Assembly: GCA_013152715.1 (NCBI GenBank)
Contig: JAADFU010000094.1
Span: 12,610-76,609 of the forward strand
Reading direction: 5' to 3'
Length of the DNA stretch: 64,000 nucleotides
Origin: Calditrichota bacterium
GTDB lineage: Bacteria; Zhuqueibacterota; Zhuqueibacteria; Thermofontimicrobiales; Thermofontimicrobiaceae
A program made the position numbers and the translations under genes. How positions within the stretch are numbered: the first letter of the stretch is position 1; the number at the start of each line of letters is the position of its first letter. Shown here piece by piece: positions 1,401 to 18,978 of the stretch. The notes under the pieces were generated by a model. The model searched no databases. It was given only the letters and a program-made list of their open reading frames with translations, and was not told where the DNA came from.

Positions 1401-3002
1401 ATGGACAAATTAGCTTTAGGCATATATTTCGACGGACTTTATGTTAATGCGGCGCTCGTGAAGCAGGAACACGGATTCCTCTCCATCGAATCGCTGGAAT
1501 CCTTCCGGCTTTACGACTCGCTTGAACAGTCAGAAGAAAGTCAAAACTCATCAGCTTCTTCGGGCGGAAGTGAACATGCAGCCGATTCGGACGACCCGTT
1601 TGGCTTTGATATCGACGGCATCGGGCAAAATAGCGACGTCACAGAAACGAGAGGCAATATCGACGTCATCGTGGAAATGTTGACAAAAATGGCGCCGGAC
1701 GGCTGTCCGATTGCTTTTAATTTGCACGACTCGAACGTCATCTACACGGTCATCAATGTCGATAAAAAAGTGACCAAATCACAGTTGAAAAAATTAATCG
1801 CCGAAGAATTGGCAAAGAGCGATGAGCAAGAATCTGTTTTCGGGCAAATCGGATTCGCGCCCATCTCAGATTTGAGCTATCTGGGCGTGGTGCACAAAGA
1901 TCCGCTCGTTTTTGCTAATCTGCTTTCAGAAGCGGTGCGCTTGATTCATCGACAATCTCAGCCGATCAAACTCATTGATACCATTGAATTTTCTTTGTCA
2001 GAGTTTATTTCCGGCGAATATCATTTTTCCGATCAGGATCGAACCGCAGTTGTCTTTTTCAGTCAGAATTTTACTAAAATATTTTTTATGAGAGGTTCGA
2101 TTGTTGATCACATTTTGCCGACAATCCACATCGGCATTCGTTCGAGCAAGATTTGCGAAACTGCTTTTTCCAAGTTGCTCTATGAACTCGATTTTAAAGG
2201 AATCGAATTGCCGCAGCGGATCGTATTGGTTGGCGAGGTGGATCCGATCGGAGCGGAAGATTTCTTTCAGCAGAAATTTCCTAATATCAAGATCGTTAAA
2301 TTTGAAGTCAATGAATCGCTGTTGGCGCCGCACATCCAAAGTCTTGCCGGCAAAACGTCTCCCTTCAGCGTGGCAATCGCGTTAGCGGCGAAGATTTTGC
2401 GACCTAAAAAATCAAGAAGATACAAACATAATTTTGTGCCTAAAAAAGTACGCGAACAACAGTCACAGTTTGTGATTGCCTGGCATGGATTCGCCATGGT
2501 AGGCTTAGTATTTTTGACGCTCGTTTTATTATTTTTAAAAAGCACAGCGATGAACGGCGATATTGCGAAATTGAAAAATTCGCTTGACGAAATAAATTTT
2601 GATCTTTCAAAACTGAGCAATGTTGAGCATGACGTGGATAGCCTGCGGCTCCAAATCAGCAATCTGGAAAAAGGGACTTCTCTGATCGACTCTTTATCTG
2701 CTGTCACGACTCGTTGGACGCCGTTAATAAAGACTTTTTCGGATGCGTATCAAAAAGTCGGGAAATTCTCAATTAAAAAAATGGAGAGCGTCAGTGATGA
2801 AAAAATGGTTGTGAGCTTAGATCTATCAAAATTAGAACAAGTTGCTTTGTTAGAAAGGTTCATTCCGGAAAGCAAAGTTTTGTCTGTGCTTCATCAGGAA
2901 ACAGAAGATCGAGGTGAAGTGCTGGAGATGACGATAGAATGCGATTTGAGCCATCAAAAGCTAAAAAAACCGAAAGCGGCAAAGTTGAATCAGGCGAATT
3001 AG
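1401..3002 (+). CDS. PilM-like actin-fold pilus assembly protein fused to a PilN-like segment (TM helix plus coiled coil)
   Basis: N-terminus LGIYFDGLYVNAALV resembles the PilM/FtsA ATPase-fold start. An internal hydrophobic helix (FVIAWHGFAMVGLVFLTLVLLFL, around aa 355-380) is followed by a coiled-coil-rich region like PilN. Position is immediately after pilT and before pilO/pilQ. Confidence 0.55.
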   Translation: MDKLALGIYFDGLYVNAALVKQEHGFLSIESLESFRLYDSLEQSEESQNSSASSGGSEHAADSDDPFGFDIDGIGQNSDVTETRGNIDVIVEMLTKMAPDGCPIAFNLHDSNVIYTVINVDKKVTKSQLKKLIAEELAKSDEQESVFGQIGFAPISDLSYLGVVHKDPLVFANLLSEAVRLIHRQSQPIKLIDTIEFSLSEFISGEYHFSDQDRTAVVFFSQNFTKIFFMRGSIVDHILPTIHIGIRSSKICETAFSKLLYELDFKGIELPQRIVLVGEVDPIGAEDFFQQKFPNIKIVKFEVNESLLAPHIQSLAGKTSPFSVAIALAAKILRPKKSRRYKHNFVPKKVREQQSQFVIAWHGFAMVGLVFLTLVLLFLKSTAMNGDIAKLKNSLDEINFDLSKLSNVEHDVDSLRLQISNLEKGTSLIDSLSAVTTRWTPLIKTFSDAYQKVGKFSIKKMESVSDEKMVVSLDLSKLEQVALLERFIPESKVLSVLHQETEDRGEVLEMTIECDLSHQKLKKPKAAKLNQAN

Positions 3003-3021
3003 TGAAAAATAAACTGAAGCT

Positions 3022-3996
3022 ATGAATAAAATTGTACGAAATACATTAATCCTGTCCTCGGTGTGGGTGCTCATGTTAATTATCGGTGTCATCTACATTT
3101 ACGGACATCAGAAAAAATTGCTCAATAAACTCAAAGCCGAAGAAAAACAAAAATCTGAGCGGCTGGCGGATTTGCGCTCGTTGCAGAATGATTTGACGGC
3201 GTTGGTAAATTATTATAAGCAATTGAAAGAAAATAGTTTACGATTTAAAGGTACTTTGGCGTCTTTTGTACTGCCTGGAGAAACTTTTGACTATATTCGC
3301 CGCGAACTGATTCGAACGAACTCTACCATAAAATTGGACATGGATTTTGAGAACGAAGAACCTTTTAAAAACATGATCAGACGAAATTATATTTTGAAAG
3401 GTACAGGCAAATTTACTGATATTTACAATTTCTTCTGGTTCTTAGAAAACGGACCGGTTTTTTATAATTTGGGCTCTTTAACGGTGGAAAAGACAGACCA
3501 AACTGCGGTCGCCGACGCGCTGCCTACTCCGGAAAAGGAAGCTTCATTCAATTTAAAGCTCGTTGGCTACGATCGCAAGGAAGGGCCAAACATAACGGAG
3601 ATCAATAATGAATATGGCGAGCCGGAGCGCATTGCAGACATATTCGAGGAAATCGCGCCTCGAAGTCGCTTCGCGGCAAATAAGCCCGCGCCTCGTTTCG
3701 CGGATAATAATTCGGCGCCGCCACGGATGAAAAGTCGCACTTTACAGCCGCAGGAAACAGCTAAAGCCAGAAATACAAGGGACTTGGCAAAGATGAGCAA
3801 CTCATGTGAAGTGCTGGCGATTACGCCATTTTCAGTGCTCATTAAAGACGCTAACGGAAAAATTATAAAGCTGCGCAAAGGTGATAAAATTTATGGCGGC
3901 ACATTGACAACATTGGACGCCAAAACAGGAAAGGCGATTTTTCAATACGACAATCAACCTGGAGCCAGGACATTTGTTTTGACAATGCAAAAATAG
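3022..3996 (+). CDS. PilO-like bitopic pilus alignment protein (N-terminal TM plus coiled coil) with a C-terminal beta-rich PilP-like domain
   Basis: Single N-terminal TM (LILSSVWVLMLIIGVIYIY) followed by coiled coil (KLKAEEKQKSERLADLRSLQNDL...). The C-terminal ~70 aa (ITPFSVLIKDANGKIIKLRKGDKIYGGTLTTLD...) resemble a small beta-sandwich. Gene order pilM/N-pilO-pilQ. Confidence 0.5.
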   Translation: MNKIVRNTLILSSVWVLMLIIGVIYIYGHQKKLLNKLKAEEKQKSERLADLRSLQNDLTALVNYYKQLKENSLRFKGTLASFVLPGETFDYIRRELIRTNSTIKLDMDFENEEPFKNMIRRNYILKGTGKFTDIYNFFWFLENGPVFYNLGSLTVEKTDQTAVADALPTPEKEASFNLKLVGYDRKEGPNITEINNEYGEPERIADIFEEIAPRSRFAANKPAPRFADNNSAPPRMKSRTLQPQETAKARNTRDLAKMSNSCEVLAITPFSVLIKDANGKIIKLRKGDKIYGGTLTTLDAKTGKAIFQYDNQPGARTFVLTMQK

Positions 3997-3998
3997 AG

Positions 3999-5642
3999 AT
4001 GACAACCATGAAAAGGATCATACTAACAACCGGGCTGGTAATGAGTTTATGCCTTGTGTCGGCGCTATTCGCCCAGAAAGAGCTGCCACGAGAATATACT
4101 CCGCCAGAAGAGTTGATTTCGCTGAACAGTGAAATTGACATCTCAACTGCGCTGGATTTGATCAGTGAGTACGCGATCCAGTTTGCCAAGAAACCAATCT
4201 ATGACCCCGATGGCCATTCCGGGCCTATCGGAGTTGATATTCGAAGTATTCCCTGGAAAAAGGCATTGGGCTTAATTCTCAGTCGACGGGGTTTGTGGTA
4301 TGCGGAAAAACCACGCTACATTCAGGTTATCAGCGCTGACGAGTACGAATCCATGCTCACTGGGGGTGGGGGAGAGGACATGAAGCTCGGCGCCGGCATG
4401 GATTTGAAACCCCACAGCCGGGAAGTAAAAATCGAGACCGTGTTTTTTGAAGGCGATAGAAAGGCGTTGAAAGAAATAGGTTTGGATTGGAGCACATTTT
4501 ATCAGGGAAAAGTACTTGTTGACGCCAGCCAATTGGGGACCCTGGATATTACTGACAACGTGTTTAATGTGGGCGCCAGAATTCCCAAAAAACTGATTGG
4601 CGTGGATTTGGAAGTGTTGCTGAAAGCTTTTGATTCAAAAAAAATTGGTAAAGTGTTAGCTCAGCCGCAAGTGGTCGTGACTGAGGGAAAAGAAGGAACT
4701 ATTCAGGTCGGACAGGATTTTTCGATCAAAGAACGAGATTTTGCCGGCAATATCATTGATCGTTTTTACAGTACAGGCACTATTCTCAAAGTAACGCCGT
4801 ACATCATTCAAAATACCGCGCCGGATGGCAAACCGCTTGAGCCGGTCATTTTTCTGAAAATCCATGTTGAGCGAAGCACGGCGCATCCGGATGTCGTCAG
4901 CACGATTATCAATAAATCCCAGGCGAATTCTTATTTGCAGCTTTATGACGGCGAGGAAACTTTGATTGCCGGGCTGTATTCCACTGAAAAAAATAAGGTT
5001 CGCAAGGGAGTGCCAATTTTAAAAGACATGCCGTGGTGGTTTTTGGGATTTCCGTACATTTTTGGATACAATCGCACCGAAGAAACTGAGAAAGAGTTGG
5101 TCATAATCATCAAAGCGACGCTGCTGAAAGACGTGCTCGTCCGTCAAAAAGTGACGAAAACGAATGCGATGAATCTAAGCCAAACGCTTGCGCAAAATTA
5201 TCGTAGCGACGCCTTTGTCAGAAATGATTTTTCTCAAATTCAAGCCAGTTCAGACTCGCCTGTACATAATTTTAGGGTGACAAGTCGACCGGAAGCCTCT
5301 TTGGTTTCCAATCCGACAGTGAAGCCGTTGGCAAACTCAATTCCCAAAGTGCAAAATCACAGTTCAATTACTCAATATTGCTTTGGCAAAATAATCAAAA
5401 TAAAGAACCAGTTGGCATTAATCTATTGGCAAAGAAAACCGGCGGAAATTAAAGTCGACGGCAAGATCGGATCAATTGTGAGAAAATCTAATTCTGCGCG
5501 AAAGGTCAATATTATTGCAGAAGCCAAAATTATCGGCACGCGACAGAATCGTTCTGTTGTCAAAATCAATAAAAGAAGATTTGATTCAACTATTCGTGCC
5601 GGAGATGTTTTTGTGATCAAAATAAACGCAACCGAGGATTGA
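3999..5642 (+). CDS. pilQ: Secretin (PilQ/GspD family) outer-membrane channel, short form with a ~180-aa C-terminal extension
   Basis: Signal peptide (MTTMKRIILTTGLVMSLCLVSALFAQ). Conserved secretin C-domain motif GVPILKDMPWWFLGFPYIFGYNRTEETEKELVIIIKATLL. An extra C-terminal region follows the secretin motif (…KVDGKIGSIVRKS…RAGDVFVIKINATED). Confidence 0.75.
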   Translation: MTTMKRIILTTGLVMSLCLVSALFAQKELPREYTPPEELISLNSEIDISTALDLISEYAIQFAKKPIYDPDGHSGPIGVDIRSIPWKKALGLILSRRGLWYAEKPRYIQVISADEYESMLTGGGGEDMKLGAGMDLKPHSREVKIETVFFEGDRKALKEIGLDWSTFYQGKVLVDASQLGTLDITDNVFNVGARIPKKLIGVDLEVLLKAFDSKKIGKVLAQPQVVVTEGKEGTIQVGQDFSIKERDFAGNIIDRFYSTGTILKVTPYIIQNTAPDGKPLEPVIFLKIHVERSTAHPDVVSTIINKSQANSYLQLYDGEETLIAGLYSTEKNKVRKGVPILKDMPWWFLGFPYIFGYNRTEETEKELVIIIKATLLKDVLVRQKVTKTNAMNLSQTLAQNYRSDAFVRNDFSQIQASSDSPVHNFRVTSRPEASLVSNPTVKPLANSIPKVQNHSSITQYCFGKIIKIKNQLALIYWQRKPAEIKVDGKIGSIVRKSNSARKVNIIAEAKIIGTRQNRSVVKINKRRFDSTIRAGDVFVIKINATED

Positions 5643-5645
5643 AAA

Positions 5646-8600
5646 ATGTGGCGCTATATTATTAATTTTGTAATCGTTGTCATCATCGGCATTCTGCTTT
5701 TTCTTTCTTGCGGACAGAGCGATGACATTGTGGGGTCTAAAAATGATTCCATTGAAGCCCTGGAGACGTCAGCGCCCGCGATTTTAGCGGACGGTTTGTC
5801 CACGGCAATCATCGTAGCGACGGTACTCGATTCCAGCGGCAAACATACGTCGGGTTTACCCGTTCATTTTGAAACGTCTGCTGGTGCGATCAATGAAATG
5901 GAATACACTGATGATGACGGAAACGCTTATGCCGTTCTGCAAAGCGTCGCCAGCAAAGCAGACCTGAAAGCGATAGTGACAGCGACTGTGCTGGATACGC
6001 TGCACCTTCTTCCCAAGGGCGCCGGATTTAATTTCGGCTTGAGGCTCTCTGTCAAGGGCATGAAATCACTGCCCGGACGAAAATTTGATTTGAAAAAATC
6101 GTCGGTAACGGGCGAGAATTCTGCCTCTATCCAGGTTAATTTTATTGGCATCGCTTTTGTCGGAGAATTGGAAGAAGCGTCCATTCCGGCAGATGGAATT
6201 TCAACGGCAAGATTGAAAGTGACGATTAAAGAGACCACGAGCAAAAAGGCGATAACCGACGCCGAAGTTTCCGTCGCGGCGACTTACGGCACAATTGTCA
6301 ATAAGATCAAAACGGACAACCAGGGACTTGCCCAGACGGATCTCACCGCGGCTACTGTTGAAGGCACCGATTCGATCTATCTGGAATACGGAAATGTTTT
6401 TCGCGACACGCTTTTCATTGATTACGAAAAACCCAACATTTCGATTTCTCCCAAAACTGCTTATTTAATTGCGGACGGGAGCAGCAAGACAACGTTCACC
6501 GTAGCTGTGAAATCAAAGAAAAATACGCCTATCGTCGATGCGGAAATTCATTTTTCCGCGACAGACGGAACCATTGCTCCGAGCGTAATTGCTACAAATA
6601 GCGAAGGAATCGCTCAGGCGACGCTCACCAGCGTTGCCAAAGTGGATACGAATGTATTGGTTATCGCCAGTTTGCATCAGTTTGCTGATACTGCTCGCGC
6701 GCGATTTATCAAGCCAATCCTGAGTTTGACGCCAGAAAGCGGGGAATTGCCGGCAGATGGCAGCAGCGAAATGGATTTCGCTGCCTCTCTTGTATTGCCG
6801 GATAATACGCCGGTTGTCGGAGCGGAAATAAGTTTTTCGACGTCAGCGGGAACAATTACCCCGACTTCAGGGAAAACCGATGCCACCGGTTCTGTCAGCG
6901 CAACACTGAAGAGCGATTTTAACGAAAATGAAAATGTGATTGTTAAAGCTGTTTTTCAAGAGTTGCAAAAAACAGCGACGGTTCGTTTCTCACTGCCAGT
7001 ACTCACGATTTCTCCTGCGGAAGCAAAATTGCTGGCTAACGGCAGCAGCAAACAGACATTCACCGCCGCTTTAATATCGCAGAACAACGTTCCTATCGCC
7101 AACGCGGAAATAGAATTCTCGACCACCAACGGGACTATTTCCAATTCTAGCGCGCTGACCAACGCCGAAGGAAAAGCGTCAACGGATTTGAGAAGCAGCA
7201 CTGTGCCCGACTCTAACGTGAAAGTGATCGCTCAATTCCACCATACGGCAGATACGGCGAACGTCGTTTTCATCCCTTCCTCGACAGAGAGCGGTTTAAA
7301 ATTAGAAGGTGAAAATGAATTGTTTCGCGATGGTATTTCTTCGACGACCATCACCGCCACTGTGCTCGATGAAAATGGAAACCCGGTATCCGATGCTACG
7401 GTTTTTTTCAGCGCTCAATACGGCACAATTCCACAGACAGCAGTCACCGGCTCGGATGGCAGTGCGGGCGTGACTTATATCGCCGATGTGGGCGAAAACA
7501 GCGTCTCAGACGAAATCACGGCTACCGTCGGCTCCGCAACCGTGAGCCACGTCATTTCGCTGCGCGGATTGACAATGACGCTTTCGGCTTCGCCGGATTC
7601 CATTCCTGCGGACGGAGTATCGATCTCGACCATTTCCGTCCATCTCAAACAGACGGAATCGCAATTAGCTGTTTCCGGAATCAATATCACTTTTACAAGC
7701 GACCGGGGATTCATTGGGACGACGGCTGCGACCAACGAACAGGGCGTGGCAAACATCGAGCTTCGATCCGCATCATCGCCAGGCACTGCCACAGTGACGG
7801 CGACGTACGGTCTTTTTGTCAAAACAGCAAATGTCCAATTTTATTTGAATTCGCCTCAGAGCATGATTTTGAGCGCTGACCCGAACTACATTTGGGTGAA
7901 AGAAACGGGCAATCTGGAGCAGACATTAATTACAGCGACGGTTTTAGGCGTACAAGGTCAGCCAATCGGCCATGAAGTTCCGATAAAATTTTACGTGCAA
8001 AATTCTCCGGATGAAAATCTCCCTGCCGATGAACAATGCGGCTTTGTGAACGAAGGCGGCGCCGTTGTGAGAGAGACGGACCCCATTTACAGCTCGGACG
8101 GATCGGCCAGTATCGGATTTCGCTCTGGCACAAAATCGGGAACCGTGGAAATTCGGGCGGAACTCGTCGAACAGCCGCAAACTTTATCGCGCCAGGCAGT
8201 GATCGTCATCCGTTCCGGCCCGCCCTACATCTGGATCGATCCGGCGGATCCCGACCACGTTTTGCCGAACATGACGCTTTATCTGGATTATTTCAATCAG
8301 GACGGCAAATATGCACTCCGCGAATACAAAGTCACTGCGCTGTTGGGCGATAAATACAATAACCCGGTCGAGCAAAACACGACAGTCTATTTCACTTCCA
8401 CGGGCGGAGTAATCACCACAGACACCAAAACATCCGCCGACGGATTTGCTCATGTGTCGCTTTTTTCGGGGAATCCGTTTCCCACAACTTGTCCCGCTGA
8501 TCCGCGGTTGAATCCGCATCAAATCCCAAATCCGAACGAGGAAGGGATGAATTTACCGATTATTTTGCCGGATTTTGAGATGGGCGAAGTGACAAATAGC

Positions 8601-9059
8601 TGCGGCGATACGGGCGAAAATGACGGCATTGCTGTAATTTACGCCTACACCTGGGGCAGAGACCAAAACGGAAATGATGCGACGGTTTTCACGACCACCA
8701 AGGCAGTATTTGGCGGTGCAATTACACATTTTGAAGTTTACGTGGATCCTCCGGTAGATTCATTGAATCCCGGAGAAGTCGCTAATATTCATATTCGCGT
8801 CTGGGACGAGCATGGCAATCCACCATCGGCTGGTTCGTCAATGTCTGCCTCCACTTCAGCGGGAAAATTATCCGTAGAAAAATTTATGCCGGACAAAGAT
8901 CGCTATGGATTTGGCAGTACTTATTTCACTACTTCACTGTTAAATAATCTGGACCCGATCGAAGACAAACCGCAAATGGCGGAAGTCACCATTAGTCTGG
9001 ATGCGCCGAATCCAAACGGGAAAATTAGCGGAACGGTTTATGTCTATTTAAAACTTTAG
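5646..9059 (+). CDS. Large surface lipoprotein composed of about 9-10 tandem bacterial Ig-like (Big_1/invasin-intimin type) domains plus a distinct ~280-aa C-terminal domain
   Basis: Lipoprotein signal with lipobox (LLFLSCGQ). Recurring ~90-aa units with signatures such as ATVTATYG, ISFSTSAGTITPTSGKTDATGSVSATLKSD, IEFSTTNGTISNSSALTNAEGKASTDLRS and VFFSAQYGTIPQTAVTGSDGSAGVTY, typical of Big_1 repeats. Confidence 0.7.
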   Translation: MWRYIINFVIVVIIGILLFLSCGQSDDIVGSKNDSIEALETSAPAILADGLSTAIIVATVLDSSGKHTSGLPVHFETSAGAINEMEYTDDDGNAYAVLQSVASKADLKAIVTATVLDTLHLLPKGAGFNFGLRLSVKGMKSLPGRKFDLKKSSVTGENSASIQVNFIGIAFVGELEEASIPADGISTARLKVTIKETTSKKAITDAEVSVAATYGTIVNKIKTDNQGLAQTDLTAATVEGTDSIYLEYGNVFRDTLFIDYEKPNISISPKTAYLIADGSSKTTFTVAVKSKKNTPIVDAEIHFSATDGTIAPSVIATNSEGIAQATLTSVAKVDTNVLVIASLHQFADTARARFIKPILSLTPESGELPADGSSEMDFAASLVLPDNTPVVGAEISFSTSAGTITPTSGKTDATGSVSATLKSDFNENENVIVKAVFQELQKTATVRFSLPVLTISPAEAKLLANGSSKQTFTAALISQNNVPIANAEIEFSTTNGTISNSSALTNAEGKASTDLRSSTVPDSNVKVIAQFHHTADTANVVFIPSSTESGLKLEGENELFRDGISSTTITATVLDENGNPVSDATVFFSAQYGTIPQTAVTGSDGSAGVTYIADVGENSVSDEITATVGSATVSHVISLRGLTMTLSASPDSIPADGVSISTISVHLKQTESQLAVSGINITFTSDRGFIGTTAATNEQGVANIELRSASSPGTATVTATYGLFVKTANVQFYLNSPQSMILSADPNYIWVKETGNLEQTLITATVLGVQGQPIGHEVPIKFYVQNSPDENLPADEQCGFVNEGGAVVRETDPIYSSDGSASIGFRSGTKSGTVEIRAELVEQPQTLSRQAVIVIRSGPPYIWIDPADPDHVLPNMTLYLDYFNQDGKYALREYKVTALLGDKYNNPVEQNTTVYFTSTGGVITTDTKTSADGFAHVSLFSGNPFPTTCPADPRLNPHQIPNPNEEGMNLPIILPDFEMGEVTNSCGDTGENDGIAVIYAYTWGRDQNGNDATVFTTTKAVFGGAITHFEVYVDPPVDSLNPGEVANIHIRVWDEHGNPPSAGSSMSASTSAGKLSVEKFMPDKDRYGFGSTYFTTSLLNNLDPIEDKPQMAEVTISLDAPNPNGKISGTVYVYLKL

Positions 9060-9171: not shown

Positions 9172-9663
9172 GTGATGATGCAGAATTTTCTATTGATCGG
9201 CGCTTTTGTGATTTTAGGAATATTAATTTTATCAATTAACAGCACAATTTTTGTCACCAACAAAGCGATTACAGAGAACGAAGTACATATTACGGGAATC
9301 GGTCTGGGGCAAGCGCTGATAGAAGAAATCACTTCGCGGTCTTTTGATGAAAATACGACCGGATCAAAAAGGGTCGCCTCTCCTTCTCAATTGACGGGTG
9401 TGGACAATCTGAGCAAAGAAACTGGAGAGCCGCCTTTTGACGACGTAGATGATTACAACAATTTCAGCAAAAAGGTCGATACGCCGCGAATCGAGGGGTA
9501 CGTGATTAATGTGAAAGTTGGCTACGCGAATCCGTTGACTCAGAGAAATTTTATTAGTACGAAAACATATCTCAAAAGAATTGAAGTGACGGTAAAAAAT
9601 CCGAAATACATGCACAATCCGGATTCGCTGATTTTAGCGACGGTAGTTTCGTATTTCAAATAA
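9172..9663 (+). CDS. Pilin-like protein A (N-terminal hydrophobic anchor, no canonical G/FxxxE prepilin motif); paralog of 11426-11929
   Basis: N-terminal helix MMMQNFLLIGAFVILGILILSIN. Shares blocks with the paralog: IEE...FDEN, PPFDDVDDYNNFS vs PYFDDIDDFNGFS, TKTYLKRIEVTVKNP vs SRTYFKRMVVEIFSP. Confidence 0.4.
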   Translation: MMMQNFLLIGAFVILGILILSINSTIFVTNKAITENEVHITGIGLGQALIEEITSRSFDENTTGSKRVASPSQLTGVDNLSKETGEPPFDDVDDYNNFSKKVDTPRIEGYVINVKVGYANPLTQRNFISTKTYLKRIEVTVKNPKYMHNPDSLILATVVSYFK

Positions 9664-9675
9664 AACAGGAGAACG

Positions 9676-10257
9676 ATGCAAACGGCTTTCAACATAATGA
9701 TTTCAATTGTCATTTTTTCACTTTTAATGATGATAGTCGTCGGCGTCGATGGCAACGTGAAATCTGTTTCCAGGCAGTTGTCAGGCGACAAAATCGCCCA
9801 GGAAATGGTCGTTGGAATTGCCGAGTTAATCGACCATGATTTTGCCAAAATTGGCTACATGAAAACCGCTCCTAAATTTAAATTAGGAGCGTTGGATTCA
9901 AATAAAATCACTTTTTATTGCGATTATGACAATAATGGGCTCATGGATTCGGTTTCGTTTTATTTTGACCGGAAAGTCAGTGCTGTGAAATCCAATCCAC
10001 ACATTCGCCACCTGTATCGCAAGATGAATAATCAAAATCCCGAAAAAGTTGCTTTGGGAATTGTTTATTTCAATCTCGCTTACTTTGATGAAAATATGAA
10101 TCCTATCAGCTACGGCAAATTAGCGGATGTGAATTATGTGAATCAAATTAAAGCGATTCGGGTCCGTTTGCGTGCAGAGACTCAATTTCAAATTGAAAAT
10201 CATTTCGGGAGCGCTTATTGGGGAAAAGTCTATTTCCCCAAAAATTTAAATTTATAG
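9676..10257 (+). CDS. Pilin-like/minor-pseudopilin-like protein B (N-terminal TM anchor); paralog of 11950-12534
   Basis: N-terminal helix IMISIVIFSLLMMIVVG. Similarity to the paralog (e.g. ELIDHDFAKIGY vs DILEYDFRKIGH). Size class (193 aa) resembles GspJ/PilW-type minor pilins. Confidence 0.35.
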   Translation: MQTAFNIMISIVIFSLLMMIVVGVDGNVKSVSRQLSGDKIAQEMVVGIAELIDHDFAKIGYMKTAPKFKLGALDSNKITFYCDYDNNGLMDSVSFYFDRKVSAVKSNPHIRHLYRKMNNQNPEKVALGIVYFNLAYFDENMNPISYGKLADVNYVNQIKAIRVRLRAETQFQIENHFGSAYWGKVYFPKNLNL

Positions 10258-10278
10258 AACCATAAATCAGCAGAGATT

Positions 10279-11322
10279 TTGCAAATGGGAAAAGCCGCGC
10301 TGTTCATAGTGATTGGATTGTCCGTTTCATTGGCATTTATAAAATTGGCCTTGATCGGTTATCCGGTCCAGTCGATGACCAACACCAGCGATTATTTTAG
10401 TTCGGTGACCGCGACTAATATTGCCCGGTCAGCGCTGAATAATTATCTGAAAAAGCTAAATCAGAATAAATCATTGCACGGTACTTTTGTCGAGGAAGAT
10501 CAATATATGGAAGGCGGAATCGACACGGTTGCCATTTCATCGGCTTCCGCTAATCCAACAATCGGAGATACAATTTCAGTAGCGGTAAAAGCTTGGTACA
10601 ATAAAAAAAGAAAAGAAGCTTCGGCGAAAATAGTATTGTCGAAATTAACAATACCGCCGCTGGAGGCGGCTGTCGCTTTCCCGGGTCAGAATCCGGTGCT
10701 TGATCTCAACGGCGCGCCGCTAATCGATGGCAATAATCACGACTATACCGGAAATTTGTCGTCTGATTCCAGCGATTTGCCTGGCGTCGCCGTTCACTCA
10801 ACAACGGATAGCGTCAACATCGTACAAAAACTTTACCATGACAAACAAGAAGATCACGTCGTTGGATTTGGCGGAATGCCCAGTGTACACGTCAAAGCAG
10901 TAGATGATCCGTCGGTTTTTATCGATCCCATTACTGCCAGCGCTGATTACCGTCTGCCAGCGGGAACCTATAGTTCGGTGACATTTGGATCCAAAAATAC
11001 GCCGGTTATTGTTTACGGACAGGGTGATTTGAAATTTTCCGGCGGCGTTGTCGGTCACGGAATTTTGGTAATCGATGGCACTTTGACGCTGTCAGGCAAT
11101 TTTTTCTGGTATGGCATCGTTTACGTCGTCGGACCCTCGCCGGAAATCTTCAACTCGGTGGGTACGAACAGGATTATCGGCGGTGTGGTACTCGGCGGTA
11201 AAGATAAGACCGCTCGTTTGCGCGGCACTGCAGATATTCAGTACAGCTATGAAGCTGTTGAAAATGTGCGAAACAACACAAAAAGTCTTTTGACAATGAA
11301 TTTGATTTCATGGTTCGAATAA
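10279..11322 (+). CDS. Large pilin-like/PilX_N-like anchored protein C with beta-rich C-terminal domain; paralog of 12560-13825
   Basis: N-terminal helix MQMGKAALFIVIGLSVSLAFIKLAL (PilX N-terminal-like, no Glu+5). Gly-rich beta-strand repeats (GGVVGHGILVIDGTLTLSGNFFWYGIVYVVG). Size (347 aa) comparable to GspK/PilX-type tip pseudopilins. Confidence 0.35.
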   Translation: MQMGKAALFIVIGLSVSLAFIKLALIGYPVQSMTNTSDYFSSVTATNIARSALNNYLKKLNQNKSLHGTFVEEDQYMEGGIDTVAISSASANPTIGDTISVAVKAWYNKKRKEASAKIVLSKLTIPPLEAAVAFPGQNPVLDLNGAPLIDGNNHDYTGNLSSDSSDLPGVAVHSTTDSVNIVQKLYHDKQEDHVVGFGGMPSVHVKAVDDPSVFIDPITASADYRLPAGTYSSVTFGSKNTPVIVYGQGDLKFSGGVVGHGILVIDGTLTLSGNFFWYGIVYVVGPSPEIFNSVGTNRIIGGVVLGGKDKTARLRGTADIQYSYEAVENVRNNTKSLLTMNLISWFE

Positions 11323-11425
11323 TTTTTATCACATGATTGTCACTGAGATTATTAACTCACAGTTAGTGATTTTGCGCGGCAACGATCTTATTTGTAATTA
11401 GTTATTTAAAATTGGGTTAAGAAAA

Positions 11426-11929
11426 ATGGGAAAAGGCGATCTGATTTTGGTCATCGGCGGACTTTTGCTGCTGTCAATGTTCACGCTTACAATAAACAGC
11501 TCGATTCGTGAGAATCAAAGCACGCTTTATTCAAGCGAAAGCGTCTTGAATGGATTAGTTTTAGCGCAAAAGTACATTGAAGAAGCGGAAGCGCTGCGCT
11601 TCGATGAAAACAAATCCGCGACGATTCCCAGTTCGTTCACCAAGCCGATTCGTCTGGGCCCTGACGGAAATGAGCATTATCCTTATTTTGACGACATCGA
11701 TGATTTTAACGGTTTTTCTGTTACAGATACATTGTCGGGAAACGTACCTTACACAATTTATATCAGCGTTTTTTATGCAACATTAACGAAGCCGGATAAA
11801 GTTTCTACCAGCCGAACCTATTTCAAAAGGATGGTAGTGGAGATATTTTCACCATTTATGAAAGATGCAGGCGATAAAACGATCACTTTGAAAAAACTTT
11901 TTGCTTATCATTATTTTTATAGTCAATAA
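11426..11929 (+). CDS. Pilin-like protein A' (second copy of the cassette)
   Basis: N-terminal helix DLILVIGGLLLLSMFTLTIN. Conserved blocks shared with 9172-9663 (see that entry). Confidence 0.4.
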   Translation: MGKGDLILVIGGLLLLSMFTLTINSSIRENQSTLYSSESVLNGLVLAQKYIEEAEALRFDENKSATIPSSFTKPIRLGPDGNEHYPYFDDIDDFNGFSVTDTLSGNVPYTIYISVFYATLTKPDKVSTSRTYFKRMVVEIFSPFMKDAGDKTITLKKLFAYHYFYSQ

Positions 11930-11949
11930 AAAATTGAGACGGATTTGCC

Positions 11950-12534
11950 ATGAATGCTATTAGAGAAACATTATTAGCGCTATTTTTCGCCGGATGGATT
12001 ATCATGATAGGCCTCCGGGTAAATACAAACTCGACATTGCATCTTTACAACACCCAGCGGAGCGCCATCAATCAAGAAAATTTGCACGTTGTTACTGACA
12101 TTCTGGAATATGACTTTCGCAAAATCGGACATGGATTGCTAAATCCGCTCGGCGCGATTCAAGTCGCCGACAGCAATCGCATCGTGTTTTCTTATGACAA
12201 AGATCCATCATTAGTTTACGATTCCATCAGAGTTGTTTACAAGATGGTTCCAGTTAAACATAAGAACCACAAATTCAACAAGATACTCATACGCAAAGAA
12301 AATTCAAATAAAATTACCCGTTTTCCGTTTGGCATTTCCAGATTCAATTTGAAGTATTTCAACAAATTTGGGAAAAATTTGCCGACGCCGGTTGTCTCCG
12401 ATTCATTGGCAAGTATCCGGGAAATTGAAATCTCTTTGACGTTAGCGAGTAGTGACCTTGAAAAAGATGAATATGGAGAAGCGAAATATGTCACCAGAAT
12501 TGTGCCAAAAAATTTATTGAGCCATTATGATTGA
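11950..12534 (+). CDS. Pilin-like protein B' (second copy)
   Basis: N-terminal helix LLALFFAGWIIMIGL. Paralogous to 9676-10257. Confidence 0.35.
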   Translation: MNAIRETLLALFFAGWIIMIGLRVNTNSTLHLYNTQRSAINQENLHVVTDILEYDFRKIGHGLLNPLGAIQVADSNRIVFSYDKDPSLVYDSIRVVYKMVPVKHKNHKFNKILIRKENSNKITRFPFGISRFNLKYFNKFGKNLPTPVVSDSLASIREIEISLTLASSDLEKDEYGEAKYVTRIVPKNLLSHYD

Positions 12535-12559
12535 CTAGAAAACTACAACAGGTGAAATC

Positions 12560-13825
12560 ATGGGACGTTACATCGCTTTCATTATCATGGGGTTTTTCAT
12601 CAGTACTTCTACATTGCGGATGCAGGCAAATCGCTACACCACCGCCAGCGTGAATAATTTTTCGGATAAATACAAGAAATTAGTTGTCAAAAATGTCGCA
12701 AACACTGGCGCTACAATTGCATTAAATGCCTTGACAGTCAACATCAATGAAATAAAAGGCATTAAAAATCAGCCTATTGATGGCGGTCATTTTTCTTACT
12801 TTCTTGAAAGACAAAAAGATGATCCAAAGTTAGGCCCGACTGAGATAAGAGTCACTTCTATTGGTCACTTTATGAATAAGACAGACACGGTGATCGTTTT
12901 GCTAACGCGCCCCTCATTTTCACGCTATGCCTATTTCACAAATCACGAAGGAAATATCTGGTTTGCCACAGGAGACACAATTTACGGTCCCTGCCACACA
13001 AACACTTATTTTCAGATGGCAGGACGACCTGTTTTTTACGGAAAAGTGACGAGCGCAAAAGTCTATAATTCACATAGCCCTTATCGTAAATATTACTACG
13101 GCCTGACAGATCCCAAATTTTACGGCGGCACAGAATGGGGAATTCCTAAACTTCCTATGCCGACTCAAATTCCTCAGGACTTAATCGATGCCGCGAAGAA
13201 CGGAGGCATCTACATTTCAAAAAGGCACGTCTGGATGAAGTTCCGATCGAACGGCACAGTGAAAATCGCAGCGAAAAATTCTTCGAAAACGCCCAAATCA
13301 TGGGAATATACAACTTACAACCTCAATAGCACAAACGGCGTTATTTACATCACGAATAGCGGCTCAAGGCCAACAGTGCGCGTCAAAGGCACAGTCAATG
13401 GAAAAGTGACTGTGGGAACCCGCGGCTACATGAGAATCACAGGCGACATCGTTTACGCCGATGATCCGCGCGTAAACCCAAACTCCAACGATTTGTTGGG
13501 ATTGCTTTCAGAACGAGATATTATTGTTTACAATAACCATCACGATCAAGATCGGACAATTCAAGCAAGCATTATGACTTTGGACCCTGCCACGGCTCCA
13601 AACAAGAATTTTTGGGTCGATCGCTACAAATATGATCGTTACGGACGTTTGCATTTATTGGGCGGTTTGATTCAAAATTCACGCGGCGCCGTGGGGCTGG
13701 TCGGAAGCTACTACAGCAGAAAAGGCTATCTCAAAGATTACCACTGGGACCAAAGACTAATGAAAATGAGCCCGCCTTATTTTCCTGCATTATTCGCTTT
13801 GCGCAAAATTTCCTGGTGGGAATAA
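12560..13825 (+). CDS. Pilin-like anchored protein C' (second copy, 421 aa)
   Basis: N-terminal helix YIAFIIMGFFISTST. Beta-rich Gly repeats (GTVNGKVTVGTRGYMRITGDIVYADD, HLLGGLIQNSRGAVGLVGSYY). Same position in the cassette as 10279-11322. Confidence 0.35.
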   Translation: MGRYIAFIIMGFFISTSTLRMQANRYTTASVNNFSDKYKKLVVKNVANTGATIALNALTVNINEIKGIKNQPIDGGHFSYFLERQKDDPKLGPTEIRVTSIGHFMNKTDTVIVLLTRPSFSRYAYFTNHEGNIWFATGDTIYGPCHTNTYFQMAGRPVFYGKVTSAKVYNSHSPYRKYYYGLTDPKFYGGTEWGIPKLPMPTQIPQDLIDAAKNGGIYISKRHVWMKFRSNGTVKIAAKNSSKTPKSWEYTTYNLNSTNGVIYITNSGSRPTVRVKGTVNGKVTVGTRGYMRITGDIVYADDPRVNPNSNDLLGLLSERDIIVYNNHHDQDRTIQASIMTLDPATAPNKNFWVDRYKYDRYGRLHLLGGLIQNSRGAVGLVGSYYSRKGYLKDYHWDQRLMKMSPPYFPALFALRKISWWE

Positions 13826-14249: not shown

Positions 14250-14876
14250 ATGCGTGAGGAAAAAACATTGTCGGGATGTGTGGTCATTTTTGGGATGCTG
14301 TTATTAATTTTTAGCGGGACGCATCAAATATGGGCACAAGCGAACCATTCAATGAAGCCGTTGAACGTCATTTTCGTTTCCAGCAAAATCCAGAATGCAC
14401 AAGCGATTGCCGACGCGGCAGACAAAGAGGCAGTGGCTGTCGTTTATGATTTTGAAAATACAACGCTGAGGCAAATTAATTTGACTCTGGAAGAATTAGT
14501 GCAATGGAAAGGGAAAAAAATTGACCATTTAATGTTCTTCTGCCACGGCGCGCCGGGGACGGTCATTTTAAGTGCTAAGGAAATTGTGGACGTGAAATCC
14601 GTGAAGAGCGAATCCGATGAATGGAAATTTTTCAGCAAAATGTTCAACAAAAATGCTACCATCGATTTTTATGGCAGTGAAATCGGCTGGGGCGAAGAAG
14701 GCAAACAATTGGTCACATTTCTCTCTCAGGTGACAGGCGCCACTGTTCGCGCCAGCGTCAATTCGTCCGGCAACATTCATGACGCCGATTGGAATTTGGA
14801 AATCAAAACGGGGAAAAATCAAATTCCCTGCCCAATTAATTTTTCGCAGTTAGCAAAAACGCCCCTGTATTTTTAA
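14250..14876 (+). CDS. Secreted standalone DUF4347-like domain protein
   Basis: Signal peptide (…LLIFSGTHQIWAQA|N). Mature part matches the DUF4347 pattern as I recall it: (FFCHGAPGTVILSAK ~ HxxSHGxxG; IDFYGSEIG ~ LLYGCNVA; GATVRASVNSSGN ~ GADVAAS; DADWNLEIKTG ~ GGDWxLE). That domain normally sits at the N-terminus of giant adhesin-like proteins; here it is 208 aa in total. Confidence 0.55.
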   Translation: MREEKTLSGCVVIFGMLLLIFSGTHQIWAQANHSMKPLNVIFVSSKIQNAQAIADAADKEAVAVVYDFENTTLRQINLTLEELVQWKGKKIDHLMFFCHGAPGTVILSAKEIVDVKSVKSESDEWKFFSKMFNKNATIDFYGSEIGWGEEGKQLVTFLSQVTGATVRASVNSSGNIHDADWNLEIKTGKNQIPCPINFSQLAKTPLYF

Positions 14877-14999
14877 ATAGATGGCGCTGTTTAGTCAGCG
14901 CCTGTCCACTGCCGCTGGTTGTCGCCCCTCTGCCAGCGGCATGGGCTTTTTCTGATGATCAACAAAATTTGGCCAATCACAGCGAATGAGAACACAGCT

Positions 15000-16394
15000 A
15001 TGGAAAATGAAAACAATGATCCGAGAACAGTTCTGGTGGTCGACGATGATATTGTTGATCTGAAAATTATGGAGCGTTTTTTCTTAAACAATAATTATCC
15101 GCATCTGCTCGCTAAAAATGCTGCTGACGGTTTATTGCTTTACCACAAACATTATCCGAAAATCATTTTCATCGATTTGCTGCTTCCGGACATGAATGGT
15201 ATTACATTGATGGAAGAAATTATCCGTGAAGATCCCGAAGTCTCCATCGTCATCGCTACGGGCCACGCTTCAGTGGAAACTGCGGTCGAGGCGATCAAAA
15301 AAGGCGCCTGCGACTATATCACCAAGCCTATTGATATGTATCAGTTGTCGCTTTTGACAGAACGTCTGGTAAAATCGCAGCAAGTTTTGCTGGAAAAAAA
15401 TCTTTTGCAGGCGAGATTGGATGAATTGTTTGGGTTTCATAATTTTATCGGCCAAAGCCAGCAGATCAAAAATGTCATTCGTCAAATCTTGCAAGTCGCC
15501 CGCACAAGTGCGACAGCGCTCATCACCGGCGAATCCGGAACCGGAAAAGAACTTTGCGCCAATGCCATTCACCAATCCAGTCCAAGAAAAAATAAACCAT
15601 TCATCAAACTAAATTGTGCCGCTCTGCCTGAGAATATCATTGAAAGCGAACTTTTCGGCCATGAAAAAGGCGCGTTTACCTCAGCGATTCAAAAACGCAT
15701 TGGGAAATTTGAATTGGCGGACGGCGGCACCATTTTCCTGGACGAGATCGGAGACCTTTCAATTTCTATTCAAGCAAAACTGTTGCGCGTGCTCGAGAAC
15801 CAGGAATTTGAGCGAATTGGCGGCAATCAGACAATTAAAGTGGACGTGCGCCTCGTCGCCGCCACAAACAGAGATTTAAGACAAGCGGTGGAAAAGGGGC
15901 TTTTCCGCGAGGACTTATTTTATCGGTTGAATGTGGTTAATATTCATATTCCACCGCTTCGCGAGCGACGTGAAGATATTCCGGTGCTTCTGACTCATTT
16001 TCTCCAACATTTCGCGGAGCAGATGAATAAACCAATTAAGTCAATTTCGGCGAAGGCACAAGCGTTGCTCAACTCATATTCTTGGCCAGGCAATGTGAGA
16101 GAGTTAGTCAATACGATTGAGCGGGCAGTTGTTTTTTGCGAGTCAAGCACAGTAACGGAGCGGGACCTGCCAGATCAGATCGCCGGAGCAAGCAACGACC
16201 CAGCAAACTCATGGAATATGCCGTTGTTGCCTTTGGCTCAGATGGAAAAAAAGTTGATCGAGCGAGTGTTAATCGAAACCAATTGGAATTTACGTCGCGC
16301 TGCGAAAATTTTAAACATCCATCGTGGAACTCTTTACAGCAAAATTGAAAAACATGGGATTAAGAAAAACAAATTATTGATGGCGTTCAATTAA
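15000..16394 (+). CDS. Sigma-54-dependent Fis-family response regulator (NtrC/PilR-like: REC + AAA+ sigma-54 activator + HTH)
   Basis: Receiver domain (VLVVDDD…D…T…K). Sigma-54 interaction domain with Walker A GESGTGKE, the GAFTSA loop and LDEIGD. C-terminal Fis-type HTH (LRRAAKILNIHRGTLYSKI). The ORF track starts at 14919; the start at ATG 15000 (MENENNDPRTV) or 14955 is uncertain. Confidence 0.85.
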   Translation: MENENNDPRTVLVVDDDIVDLKIMERFFLNNNYPHLLAKNAADGLLLYHKHYPKIIFIDLLLPDMNGITLMEEIIREDPEVSIVIATGHASVETAVEAIKKGACDYITKPIDMYQLSLLTERLVKSQQVLLEKNLLQARLDELFGFHNFIGQSQQIKNVIRQILQVARTSATALITGESGTGKELCANAIHQSSPRKNKPFIKLNCAALPENIIESELFGHEKGAFTSAIQKRIGKFELADGGTIFLDEIGDLSISIQAKLLRVLENQEFERIGGNQTIKVDVRLVAATNRDLRQAVEKGLFREDLFYRLNVVNIHIPPLRERREDIPVLLTHFLQHFAEQMNKPIKSISAKAQALLNSYSWPGNVRELVNTIERAVVFCESSTVTERDLPDQIAGASNDPANSWNMPLLPLAQMEKKLIERVLIETNWNLRRAAKILNIHRGTLYSKIEKHGIKKNKLLMAFN

Positions 16395-17280: not shown

Positions 17281-18978
17281 TTGAAAATGGCATTTCAGGA
17301 AGATCAAGTTTTTATTCAGGAACTGATAAAAAAGGGGCTGATTACAAAATCTCAAATCATTCAATCGCAAAATTTGCTCCGTACTCAACTCAGTCGGGAA
17401 GGGATTACGAAAACATTGTTGTCTCATTTTAAGCTCGACGAAACAAAACTGGCGCAATCCATTGCAGAAATATTCAACGTGCCATTTATGGAGCAGGTAA
17501 ACGGCCTTTCGCGAATGGAAGTTGACGAACTCCAGACAGTGAATATTCCCGCTGATTTTCGTTTCATTCCTGTGCTGGTTGATATTAATGAAATCACCAT
17601 TGCCATCAAGGACCCGCCTTATCAGAAATTGGTTGAGTTTGTCAAAAAAGCGACCGACAAGCACATCATTACTCTTGTGCTCAAAAATTCCGATTTTGAA
17701 TATCTCAATGATGAAAAAGTCGCGGAGAAAAAGTCGGATAAGCCGCTAAAAATTGATTTCTCCAAACTCGATGTCGAGAAGCAGGGGCTTCGATGGGCAC
17801 GATCAGCAGAGCAGACCGGATCGCTACCTTCGGCGAAGAATGTACTTGATCGCTTACTGGAGACCGCTCGCGAAACCAACGCCAGCGATATCCATCTGGA
17901 AATTACATCTCAGAACACGTTGGTCGTCAGATTTCGCTTAAACGGCGTTCTTCAGCGAGTGGTCACGCTGCCTCAGAGTTACGCCTCATCCTTGCCGAAA
18001 GTAATCAAGCAGATAGCGAGCATTGATAATTTTGAGAAAAACAATATAGCAGAAGGAATTTTTTCGGAGCCATTGAGCGGCAATAAAATTCAGTGCCGCG
18101 TAAATATTATTCCCACCGCGACCAGCGAAAAAATTACTCTCCGCATGGTCAACGACCATCTGGATATTATTCGTCTGGAACGCTTGGGGTTATCGCTGCA
18201 TGATCTGCAGCGGATTCGTCGTCTTTTGTCTTACCACAATACTGTTATTTTATTCTCCGGCCCAGCCGGATGTGGAAAGACGACGACTTTGTACTCTGTC
18301 TTGAACGAGCTCAATCATTTCACGAAAAATATTACAACCATCGAAACGCCGGTGGAAGCTCATCTGGAAGGAGTTAATCAAATTTCTGTAACGACAAATT
18401 CAGATCTTGATTTTGCTAAGGTGATGAAAGCTTTGTTTCATCATGACGTGGATTCTCTGGCTCTGGGTGAGGTTCGCAGCAAGCAAGAGGCTGAGTTGCT
18501 TTTGGAAGCAGGCCTTTCCGGAATGACTGCTTTTGCCACGATTCAAGCGGCAGACGCAATAAAAACAATCTATCGTTTGAAAAATTTTGGCGTAGAGATC
18601 GAACAATTTGCGCTCGCTCTCCGCGGCATCGTTTCTCAACGATTTGTGCGCAAGGTTTGTCCTTATTGTCAGGCAGAATATCGTCCGGATGCGGAAATTC
18701 TGCAAAACGCCGGACTAAAAAGTCTGCCGGAAGATTTTAAATTTAAGCGGGGATTGGGCTGCAAGAATTGCCTGGGGACAGGCTATCTGGGGCGCATTCC
18801 CGTTTTTGAAGTTCTCATTTTCAATGAAACTCTGAGTTCGTTGGTTTTTCAAAACAAACCATATCGCGAACTTTTTTTAGCGGCGAAACATGAAGGCTTC
18901 ACTACCCTGCGCTATGACGGACTTCGCAAAGCGCTGGCAGGCATCACCACGCTCAACGAAGTCCTTCGAGTCACTTGA
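17281..18978 (+). CDS. pilB: Type IV pilus assembly ATPase PilB / GspE family
   Basis: N-terminal T2SSE_N/MshEN-like helical domain. Walker A GPAGCGKTT, Asp and His boxes. Tetracysteine zinc motif CPYC…CKNC typical of GspE/PilB. Confidence 0.85.
   Translation: MKMAFQEDQVFIQELIKKGLITKSQIIQSQNLLRTQLSREGITKTLLSHFKLDETKLAQSIAEIFNVPFMEQVNGLSRMEVDELQTVNIPADFRFIPVLVDINEITIAIKDPPYQKLVEFVKKATDKHIITLVLKNSDFEYLNDEKVAEKKSDKPLKIDFSKLDVEKQGLRWARSAEQTGSLPSAKNVLDRLLETARETNASDIHLEITSQNTLVVRFRLNGVLQRVVTLPQSYASSLPKVIKQIASIDNFEKNNIAEGIFSEPLSGNKIQCRVNIIPTATSEKITLRMVNDHLDIIRLERLGLSLHDLQRIRRLLSYHNTVILFSGPAGCGKTTTLYSVLNELNHFTKNITTIETPVEAHLEGVNQISVTTNSDLDFAKVMKALFHHDVDSLALGEVRSKQEAELLLEAGLSGMTAFATIQAADAIKTIYRLKNFGVEIEQFALALRGIVSQRFVRKVCPYCQAEYRPDAEILQNAGLKSLPEDFKFKRGLGCKNCLGTGYLGRIPVFEVLIFNETLSSLVFQNKPYRELFLAAKHEGFTTLRYDGLRKALAGITTLNEVLRVT

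Follow-up and report, generated by a model that had tools for sequence, protein, structure and literature searches.

Two adjacent genes in a 64,000-nucleotide stretch of Calditrichota DNA (hereafter the window; contig JAADFU010000094.1 of assembly GCA_013152715.1, positions 12,610 to 76,609) encode what we consider, with a probability of roughly 85%, to be the inner-membrane alignment and assembly subcomplex of a retractile type IVa-like pilus, in which four proteins are compressed into two. The products of these genes are open reading frame 1 (ORF1), a PilM-PilN fusion, and ORF2, a PilO-PilP fusion. Public records list the two genes as GXO74_07260 and GXO74_07265, each a "hypothetical protein" from a Calditrichaeota metagenome-assembled genome (MAG). 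Both fusions had been proposed in an original prediction made from the letters of the window, and the two genes lie exactly where it had placed them, at 1401-3002 and 3022-3996. Its reading of the first as an actin-like PilM followed by PilN is supported by the PilM fold, a PilN-type motif, a transmembrane segment, and a PilN-like core; its reading of the second also holds, with a transmembrane segment and coiled coil, a PilO-like core, and a C-terminal beta-domain whose PilP identity is structural only. Domain parsing with AlphaFold, which the prediction had named as a check, recovered long helices following each transmembrane segment and, in ORF2, an all-beta domain at the C terminus. Our computations cover the folds of the domains, features of topology, the motif, conservation, and synteny; interactions within the complex were inferred from the PilMNOP and GspLMC systems. 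The genes and the parts of their products are as follows (aa, amino acids).

1401-3002, + strand: ORF1, PilM-PilN fusion protein, 533 aa, ATG start
1401-2405, + strand: ORF1 aa 1-335, cytoplasmic actin-like PilM domain (Foldseek, AlphaFold2)
2421-2462, + strand: ORF1 aa 341-354, Y-K-H-N-F-V-P-K-K-V-R-E-Q-Q, PilN-type N-terminal motif, putatively PilM-docking
2466-2555, + strand: ORF1 aa 356-385, single transmembrane segment (hydropathy)
2556-2705, + strand: ORF1 aa 386-435, periplasmic coiled-coil-type helix (AlphaFold2)
2718-2945, + strand: ORF1 aa 440-515, PilN-like (alpha-beta-beta)x2 ferredoxin-like periplasmic core (AlphaFold2)
3022-3996, + strand: ORF2, PilO-PilP fusion protein, 324 aa, ATG start
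3046-3243, + strand: ORF2 aa 9-74, N-terminal transmembrane segment (about aa 9-29), then a coiled-coil-type helix (hydropathy, AlphaFold2)
3274-3576, + strand: ORF2 aa 85-185, PilO-like ferredoxin-like core
3613-3807, + strand: ORF2 aa 198-262, disordered, poorly conserved linker (AlphaFold2, alignment)
3808-3984, + strand: ORF2 aa 263-321, PilP- or GspC-HR-like beta-sandwich domain (AlphaFold2, structure matches)

The N-terminal part of ORF1 was identified by its fold. In an AlphaFold2 model with a mean predicted local distance difference test score (pLDDT) of 75, residues 1-335 mostly reach 80-94. The ten best Foldseek matches in the Protein Data Bank (PDB) are all PilM (E-values of 1.3e-14 to 2.9e-12) and include those of Pseudomonas aeruginosa (5eou, 1.3e-14), Myxococcus xanthus (3jc8_Ma, 5.8e-13), and Thermus thermophilus (2ych, 2.9e-12); target TM-scores against PilM structures are 0.54-0.67. 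Lower in the list come FtsA (about 1e-11) and the cytoplasmic domain of GspL (1.7e-6). The PilM models of Pfam (PF11104) and NCBIfam (TIGR01175) match neither ORF1 nor any of about 109 relatives. Another structure with similarity to this domain (6.8e-8) is 3hrg (BT_3980), a structural-genomics entry for an actin-like protein of Bacteroides thetaiotaomicron without an assigned function, which may be a Bacteroides member or relative of the same PilM-like family. Within the domain, residues 41-80 (1521-1640) form a disordered, acidic, serine-rich insert holding a conserved P-F-G motif, of which P66 and F67 occur in at least 90% of close relatives, and F-G persists in the consensus of 140 distant relatives. 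Possibly this is a short linear motif directed at a partner, for example, PilB, PilT, or PilC.

Between the two halves of ORF1 is a short segment that resembles the N terminus of PilN, where a motif of the I-N-L-L-P type precedes the transmembrane segment by about 10 residues. The family consensus is [NDS][FL][LTIV]P, represented in ORF1 itself by N344-F-V-P347. The proline is kept in 88 of 89 and in 136 of 140 diverse relatives (about 18-54% identity), and Q354, seven residues farther on, in 83 of 89. The segment aligns with residues 4-15 of Escherichia coli HofN (PINFLPWRQQRR), whose N terminus reads MNPPINFLPWRQQRR and holds the motif INFLPW, and it does so at the same spacing, with 9-10 residues separating the proline from the transmembrane segment in both proteins. 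When the C-terminal profile of ORF1 was compared with HofN by using hhalign, the overall match was insignificant, and the top local match was exactly this segment. Since reviews give the N terminus of PilN as the PilM-binding element (PMC4471445, PMC6916266), we regard the motif as the probable PilM-docking site. Although it has no regular secondary structure in the AlphaFold2 model, its pLDDT there is 78-85, which hints that the motif may be docked on the PilM domain.

The remainder of ORF1 has the topology and fold of PilN. Its only internal hydrophobic segment (Kyte-Doolittle mean of 2.21 over 19 aa) has a counterpart at the equivalent site in 130 of 140 relatives, and the K/R-rich stretch directly before it would fit a cytoplasmic location of the N-terminal side. 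Residues 348-435, containing the transmembrane segment, are modeled as one unbroken helix, followed by a core with the order H440-453, E457-463, E468-475, H478-487, E491-501, and E505-515, that is, the fold described for PilN, PilO, GspL's periplasmic domain, and GspM (PMC4471445). ORF1 itself has no match to the Pfam PilN model (PF05137), but 16 of 89 distant relatives do (best E-value of 5.9e-9), over the region equivalent to about aa 442-519, and PilN is the only Pfam family that recurs among these relatives. One family member carries the NCBI name "PilN domain-containing protein".

About a third of diverse ORF1 representatives (50 of 140) exceed 650 aa. All eight long relatives scanned (P0069, P0079, P0082, P0085, P0090, P0103, P0150, and P0173) append C-terminal SPOR (peptidoglycan-binding) or TPR domains, which is consistent with a periplasmic location of the C terminus of ORF1 and implies that some lineages put extra envelope-anchoring functions into the PilMN polypeptide. 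We had considered whether relatives of 700-1000 aa were M-N-O-P mega-fusions, and rejected this because their surplus length consists of these SPOR or TPR domains.

ORF2 has a short cytoplasmic N terminus, one transmembrane segment, a coiled coil, and a core that is nearest to solved PilO structures. Its single hydrophobic segment (aa 3-29, Kyte-Doolittle 2.49) begins a helix at residues 3-74 with a pLDDT of 76-88, in a model whose mean is 67. The Pfam PilO model (PF04350) matches neither ORF2 nor its close relatives. Among 31 distant Bacteroidota orthologues, sub-threshold Pfam matches occur to PilO in 19 (best E-value of 0.0034, covering profile positions 6-141 of 145), to T2SSM_b in 18 (best 1e-4), and to PilN in 14. 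Two members of the family are named PilO by JGI.

Beyond this core, a linker that is variable in length and sequence among relatives (pLDDT below 50 at aa 198-248) is the counterpart of the flexible N-terminal region of PilP. It leads to a small, all-beta domain of seven strands (pLDDT of about 62-67) with the form of an HR-type beta-sandwich. The alternative that survives best concerns this domain: it might be an unrelated small beta-sandwich, for example one that binds peptidoglycan or cargo, in which case ORF2 would be an extended PilO and the system would have no PilP. The Pfam PilP model (PF04351) finds nothing in ORF2, in 33 close relatives, or in the 31 distant orthologues, so that the PilP assignment is purely structural; the model confidence of the domain is moderate, and DotF is also among its structure matches. 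Moreover, C-terminal extensions of unrelated kinds are known on monoderm PilO proteins (PMC6916266), and fusions of PilO with LysM have been described (PMC13319060). Neither a lipobox cysteine nor a lipoprotein signal peptide, as in PilP, was found in ORF2, whose beta-domain is internal and anchored by the N-terminal PilO-type transmembrane segment; GspC, which also carries an HR domain, is likewise transmembrane-anchored. On the other side stand the fold itself, the preceding linker, and the adjacency of the secretin gene in every locus that extends to it, which supports the idea that the domain would bind the secretin N0 domain. Taken together, we think it unlikely that the domain is something other than a PilP homologue. 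In Bacteroidota PilOP orthologues (loci L019-L027, for example, L020 8666-9532), the linker is much shorter, and a conserved [H/Y]-N-P-[F/L/Y]..P-L-I-[H/Y] stands right before the beta-domain, recalling the R-D-P-F ahead of the beta-sandwich in E. coli HofP.

The failure of standard sequence models extends to both proteins. No PilM, PilN, PilO, or PilP model of Pfam or NCBIfam matches ORF1, ORF2, or any member of their close alignments. Searches of PDB sequences with the ORF1 and ORF2 family profiles (hmmsearch) found nothing, and hhalign comparisons of sub-alignments with E. coli HofM, HofN, HofO, and HofP, and of the C-terminal part of ORF1 with the N-terminal part of ORF2, were insignificant throughout. 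However, HofN, an authentic PilN-family protein, likewise retrieves no PilN from the PDB by using phmmer, which marks the family as very divergent; these failed searches therefore weigh little as negatives. With the assignments made here, they show that standard profile models under-detect the type IV pilus machinery of Calditrichota, KSB1, and Bacteroidota.

The two genes flanking ORF1 and ORF2 bear on the type of machine to which they belong.

158-1384, + strand: PilT-family retraction ATPase, immediately upstream of ORF1 (TIGR01420 pilT_fam, PF00437 T2SSE)
3999-5642, + strand: PilQ-like secretin, starting 3 nucleotides past the ORF2 stop (PF00263, 1.5e-25)

The upstream product matches pilT_fam at 4.6e-92 (309 bits; cutoff of 319) and T2SSE at 6.7e-35, and the secretin scores better with TIGR02515 PilQ (7.8e-23) than with GspD (1.1e-15). 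A related locus in the closed chromosome OY843751.1 (locus L016) has the order pilin-like ORF, PilC (T2SSF), PilB, response regulator, PilS-like kinase, PilT, MN, OP, and secretin, and then a giant protein with Big_1 repeats and small pilin-like ORFs.

These data were weighed against the possibility that the cluster is a secretion machine resembling a type II secretion system (T2SS), with ORF1 as an orthologue of GspL and ORF2 as a GspM fused to the HR domain of GspC. GspL is indeed like ORF1 in having, on one polypeptide, a cytoplasmic actin-like domain, a single transmembrane segment, and a periplasmic ferredoxin-like domain, and its partner GspM is PilO-like. Unlike GspL, ORF1 has a full-size cytoplasmic domain that is far nearer to PilM (1e-14) than to cytoplasmic GspL, and it retains a PilN-type N-[FL]-L-P motif between its domains. 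A GspL would be expected in a T2SS cluster without a retraction ATPase, whereas here PilT is adjacent. The presence of PilT and of a PilS-like kinase, together with the preference for PilM over GspL and for PilQ over GspD, thus favors a retractile machine like type IVa pili (T4aP), although the pilin-like ORFs lack the canonical prepilin motif, and we judge a T2SS-like identity to be very improbable.

The fused layout is lineage-wide within the FCB group: it occurs in Calditrichota, KSB1, Eisenbacteria, and Bacteroidota, with Balneolales and Chitinophagales among the last. An exhaustive profile search recovered 507 cluster representatives of the ORF1 family (E-value of at most 1e-3), and both halves are present in 137 of 140 diverse representatives. 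The ORF2 family comprises 62 matches, all 283-327 aa long except for three shorter fragments. In all 26 reference-genome loci, which were located with a narrower ORF1 alignment rather than with the broad, diverse one, the order PilT-MN-OP-secretin is intact as far as each contig extends: the secretin gene always comes next after the OP gene, and PilT precedes MN where loci extend upstream. KSB1, Balneolales, Chitinophagales, and "Cytophagia"/Bacteroidetes MAGs are the sources of these loci, one of which lies on the closed chromosome. Wherever an OP gene is present in them, it is one ORF that matches both the PilO-like and the PilP-like sub-profiles. The comparison of orthologues that the original prediction had called for thus finds both fusions recurring without interruption. 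Although the source is a MAG, an artefact of sequencing, assembly, or gene calling, in which lost stops or frameshifts joined pilM to pilN and pilO to pilP, is refuted by the conservation of these unbroken architectures in hundreds of independent assemblies, with every complete ORF2 relative a single ORF of 283-337 aa, also in the closed chromosome, and we give it practically no credence.

The statement that the window holds no separate pilN or pilP gene was likewise confirmed. Searches of all its stop-to-stop ORFs with family sub-profiles (hmmsearch) revealed no PilN-, PilO-, or PilP-like paralogue, with nothing below an E-value of 0.007 besides ORF1 and ORF2, and PilN, PilO, and PilP are absent from Pfam scans of the remaining cluster ORFs. 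The edge of the window truncates the upstream part of the pilus cluster; separate pilN, pilO, or pilP genes were also not found upstream in the syntenic L016 locus.

The roles of alignment-complex parts are known from the literature (PMC4471445, PMC10191384, PMC6916266, PMC3169554), and by analogy a mechanism can be proposed for the two proteins. ORF1 would present a PilM domain, a join of about 10 residues, the docking motif N-F-V-P, a transmembrane segment, a periplasmic coiled coil, and a ferredoxin-like core, and ORF2 a short cytoplasmic N terminus, a transmembrane segment, a coiled coil, a PilO core, a flexible tether, and the PilP/GspC-HR beta-sandwich. The transmembrane, coiled-coil, and core regions of the two proteins would heterodimerize in the periplasm, as do those of PilN and PilO or of GspL and GspM. 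The tether and HR domain of ORF2 would attach to the neighboring secretin at its N0 domain, in the way described for PilP and GspC-HR (PMC3169554), and the PilM domain may form a cytoplasmic ring that engages PilB, PilT, and PilC (PMC6325625, PMC8389850). The fusions would set the M:N and O:P ratios at 1:1, and the PilO transmembrane segment would substitute for the lipid anchor of PilP. The docking motif is strictly conserved even though the PilM and PilN parts are already covalently joined; this suggests that the conformation of PilM is still influenced by the peptide-in-groove contact, whose role would exceed that of a tether.

In comparison with the canonical PilMNOP systems of P. aeruginosa, M. 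xanthus, T. thermophilus, and Neisseria meningitidis, the same four modules occur in the same operon order ahead of the secretin gene, their folds agree with structures of PilM, PilN/PilO, and PilP, and the PilN docking motif is shared. The differences are that there are two polypeptides rather than four, that the PilP module is carried on a PilO transmembrane segment rather than on a lipid-modified cysteine, and that ORF1 and ORF2 lack significant sequence similarity to curated family models.

Earlier reports exist for both types of fusion, and therefore the concept put forward in the original prediction is correct but not new. Fused pilM and pilN are known in T4aP clusters, as PilMN of Clostridioides difficile and in most Campylobacterota pilMNOPQ clusters (PMC6916266; bioRxiv 10.1101/2025.02.19.638559). 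As described, these have no reported pilO-pilP fusion, the Campylobacterota clusters being pilMNOPQ and the monoderms having no PilP; the ORF1 family differs from them also in belonging to the FCB group and in being divergent enough to escape Pfam and NCBIfam. PilO-PilP fusions are mentioned in "a few cases", such as Pseudomonas putida Q88CU9, from which Korotkov et al. (2011) argued for a 1:1 stoichiometry (PMC3169554). Relative to the description of that protein, the ORF2 fusion is fixed across several phyla, co-occurs with the MN fusion, and has a PilP part that is undetectable by sequence. In the literature searched, we found no account of both fusions together, of their multi-phylum fixation in the FCB group, or of the invisibility of the family to current models.

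These assignments provide a PilMN and PilOP annotation for two large families that are mostly listed as "hypothetical protein". As a natural double fusion, the pair offers evolutionary evidence of an independent kind that PilM:PilN and PilO:PilP each have a 1:1 stoichiometry and that PilP tethers PilO to the secretin, and the retention of the docking motif argues for a structural or allosteric role of the peptide-groove contact beyond recruitment. With only two proteins, the alignment complex could also be easier to approach structurally. These fusions leave the present understanding of how pilus machines work unchanged.

The genes that follow the secretin include additional candidate components of the cluster.

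5646-9059: giant immunoglobulin-like protein, 1137 aa, about eight Big_1/Invasin_D3 repeats, directly past the secretin
9172-13825: small pilin-like ORFs, at 9172-9663, 9676-10257, 10279-11322, 11426-11929, 11950-12534, and 12560-13825
14250-14876: DUF4347 protein
14919-16394: sigma-54-dependent response regulator, PilR/NtrC type
17281-18978: PilB-like T2SSE ATPase, full-length

The pilin-like ORFs have a hydrophobic N-terminal helix behind a very short, non-canonical leader, MG-x-x-[D/E/Q/A]-hydrophobic, examples of which are MGKGDLILVIGG, MGKAALFIVIG, and MGQQQLLLIVL. A six-frame regular-expression search found no canonical G-F-T-L-x-E prepilin motif in any frame of the window, and among these ORFs only 12560-13825 has a Pfam match, to DUF4900. 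We regard them as candidates for an atypical class of type IV pilins. Further pilin-like ORFs are present in L016 at 37-465 and 14276-14779.

A 957-aa counterpart of the giant Big_1 protein is found at the matching place in the distant syntenic locus (L016 11388-14261). The giant protein therefore seems to belong to the conserved makeup of the pilus cluster, perhaps as an adhesin or as a component that spans the envelope. A more far-reaching idea, which we regard as doubtful, is that the FCB clusters are a distinct, unrecognized subtype of type IV filament machine, defined by the two-polypeptide MN/OP complex, MG-leader pilins, the Big_1 giant protein, and core parts invisible to PilM, PilN, PilO, and PilP models.

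Past its Pfam Secretin domain, the secretin continues with an extension of about 170 aa (aa 380-547, 5136-5642) to a beta-rich C-terminal end. Orthologues from KSB1 and Calditrichota are 529-608 aa long, whereas those of Bacteroidota, at about 395-422 aa, lack the extension. Finally, PilB lies upstream of PilT in related loci, unlike the PilB-like ATPase at 17281-18978, so that either the arrangement in the window differs or this gene encodes a second extension ATPase.

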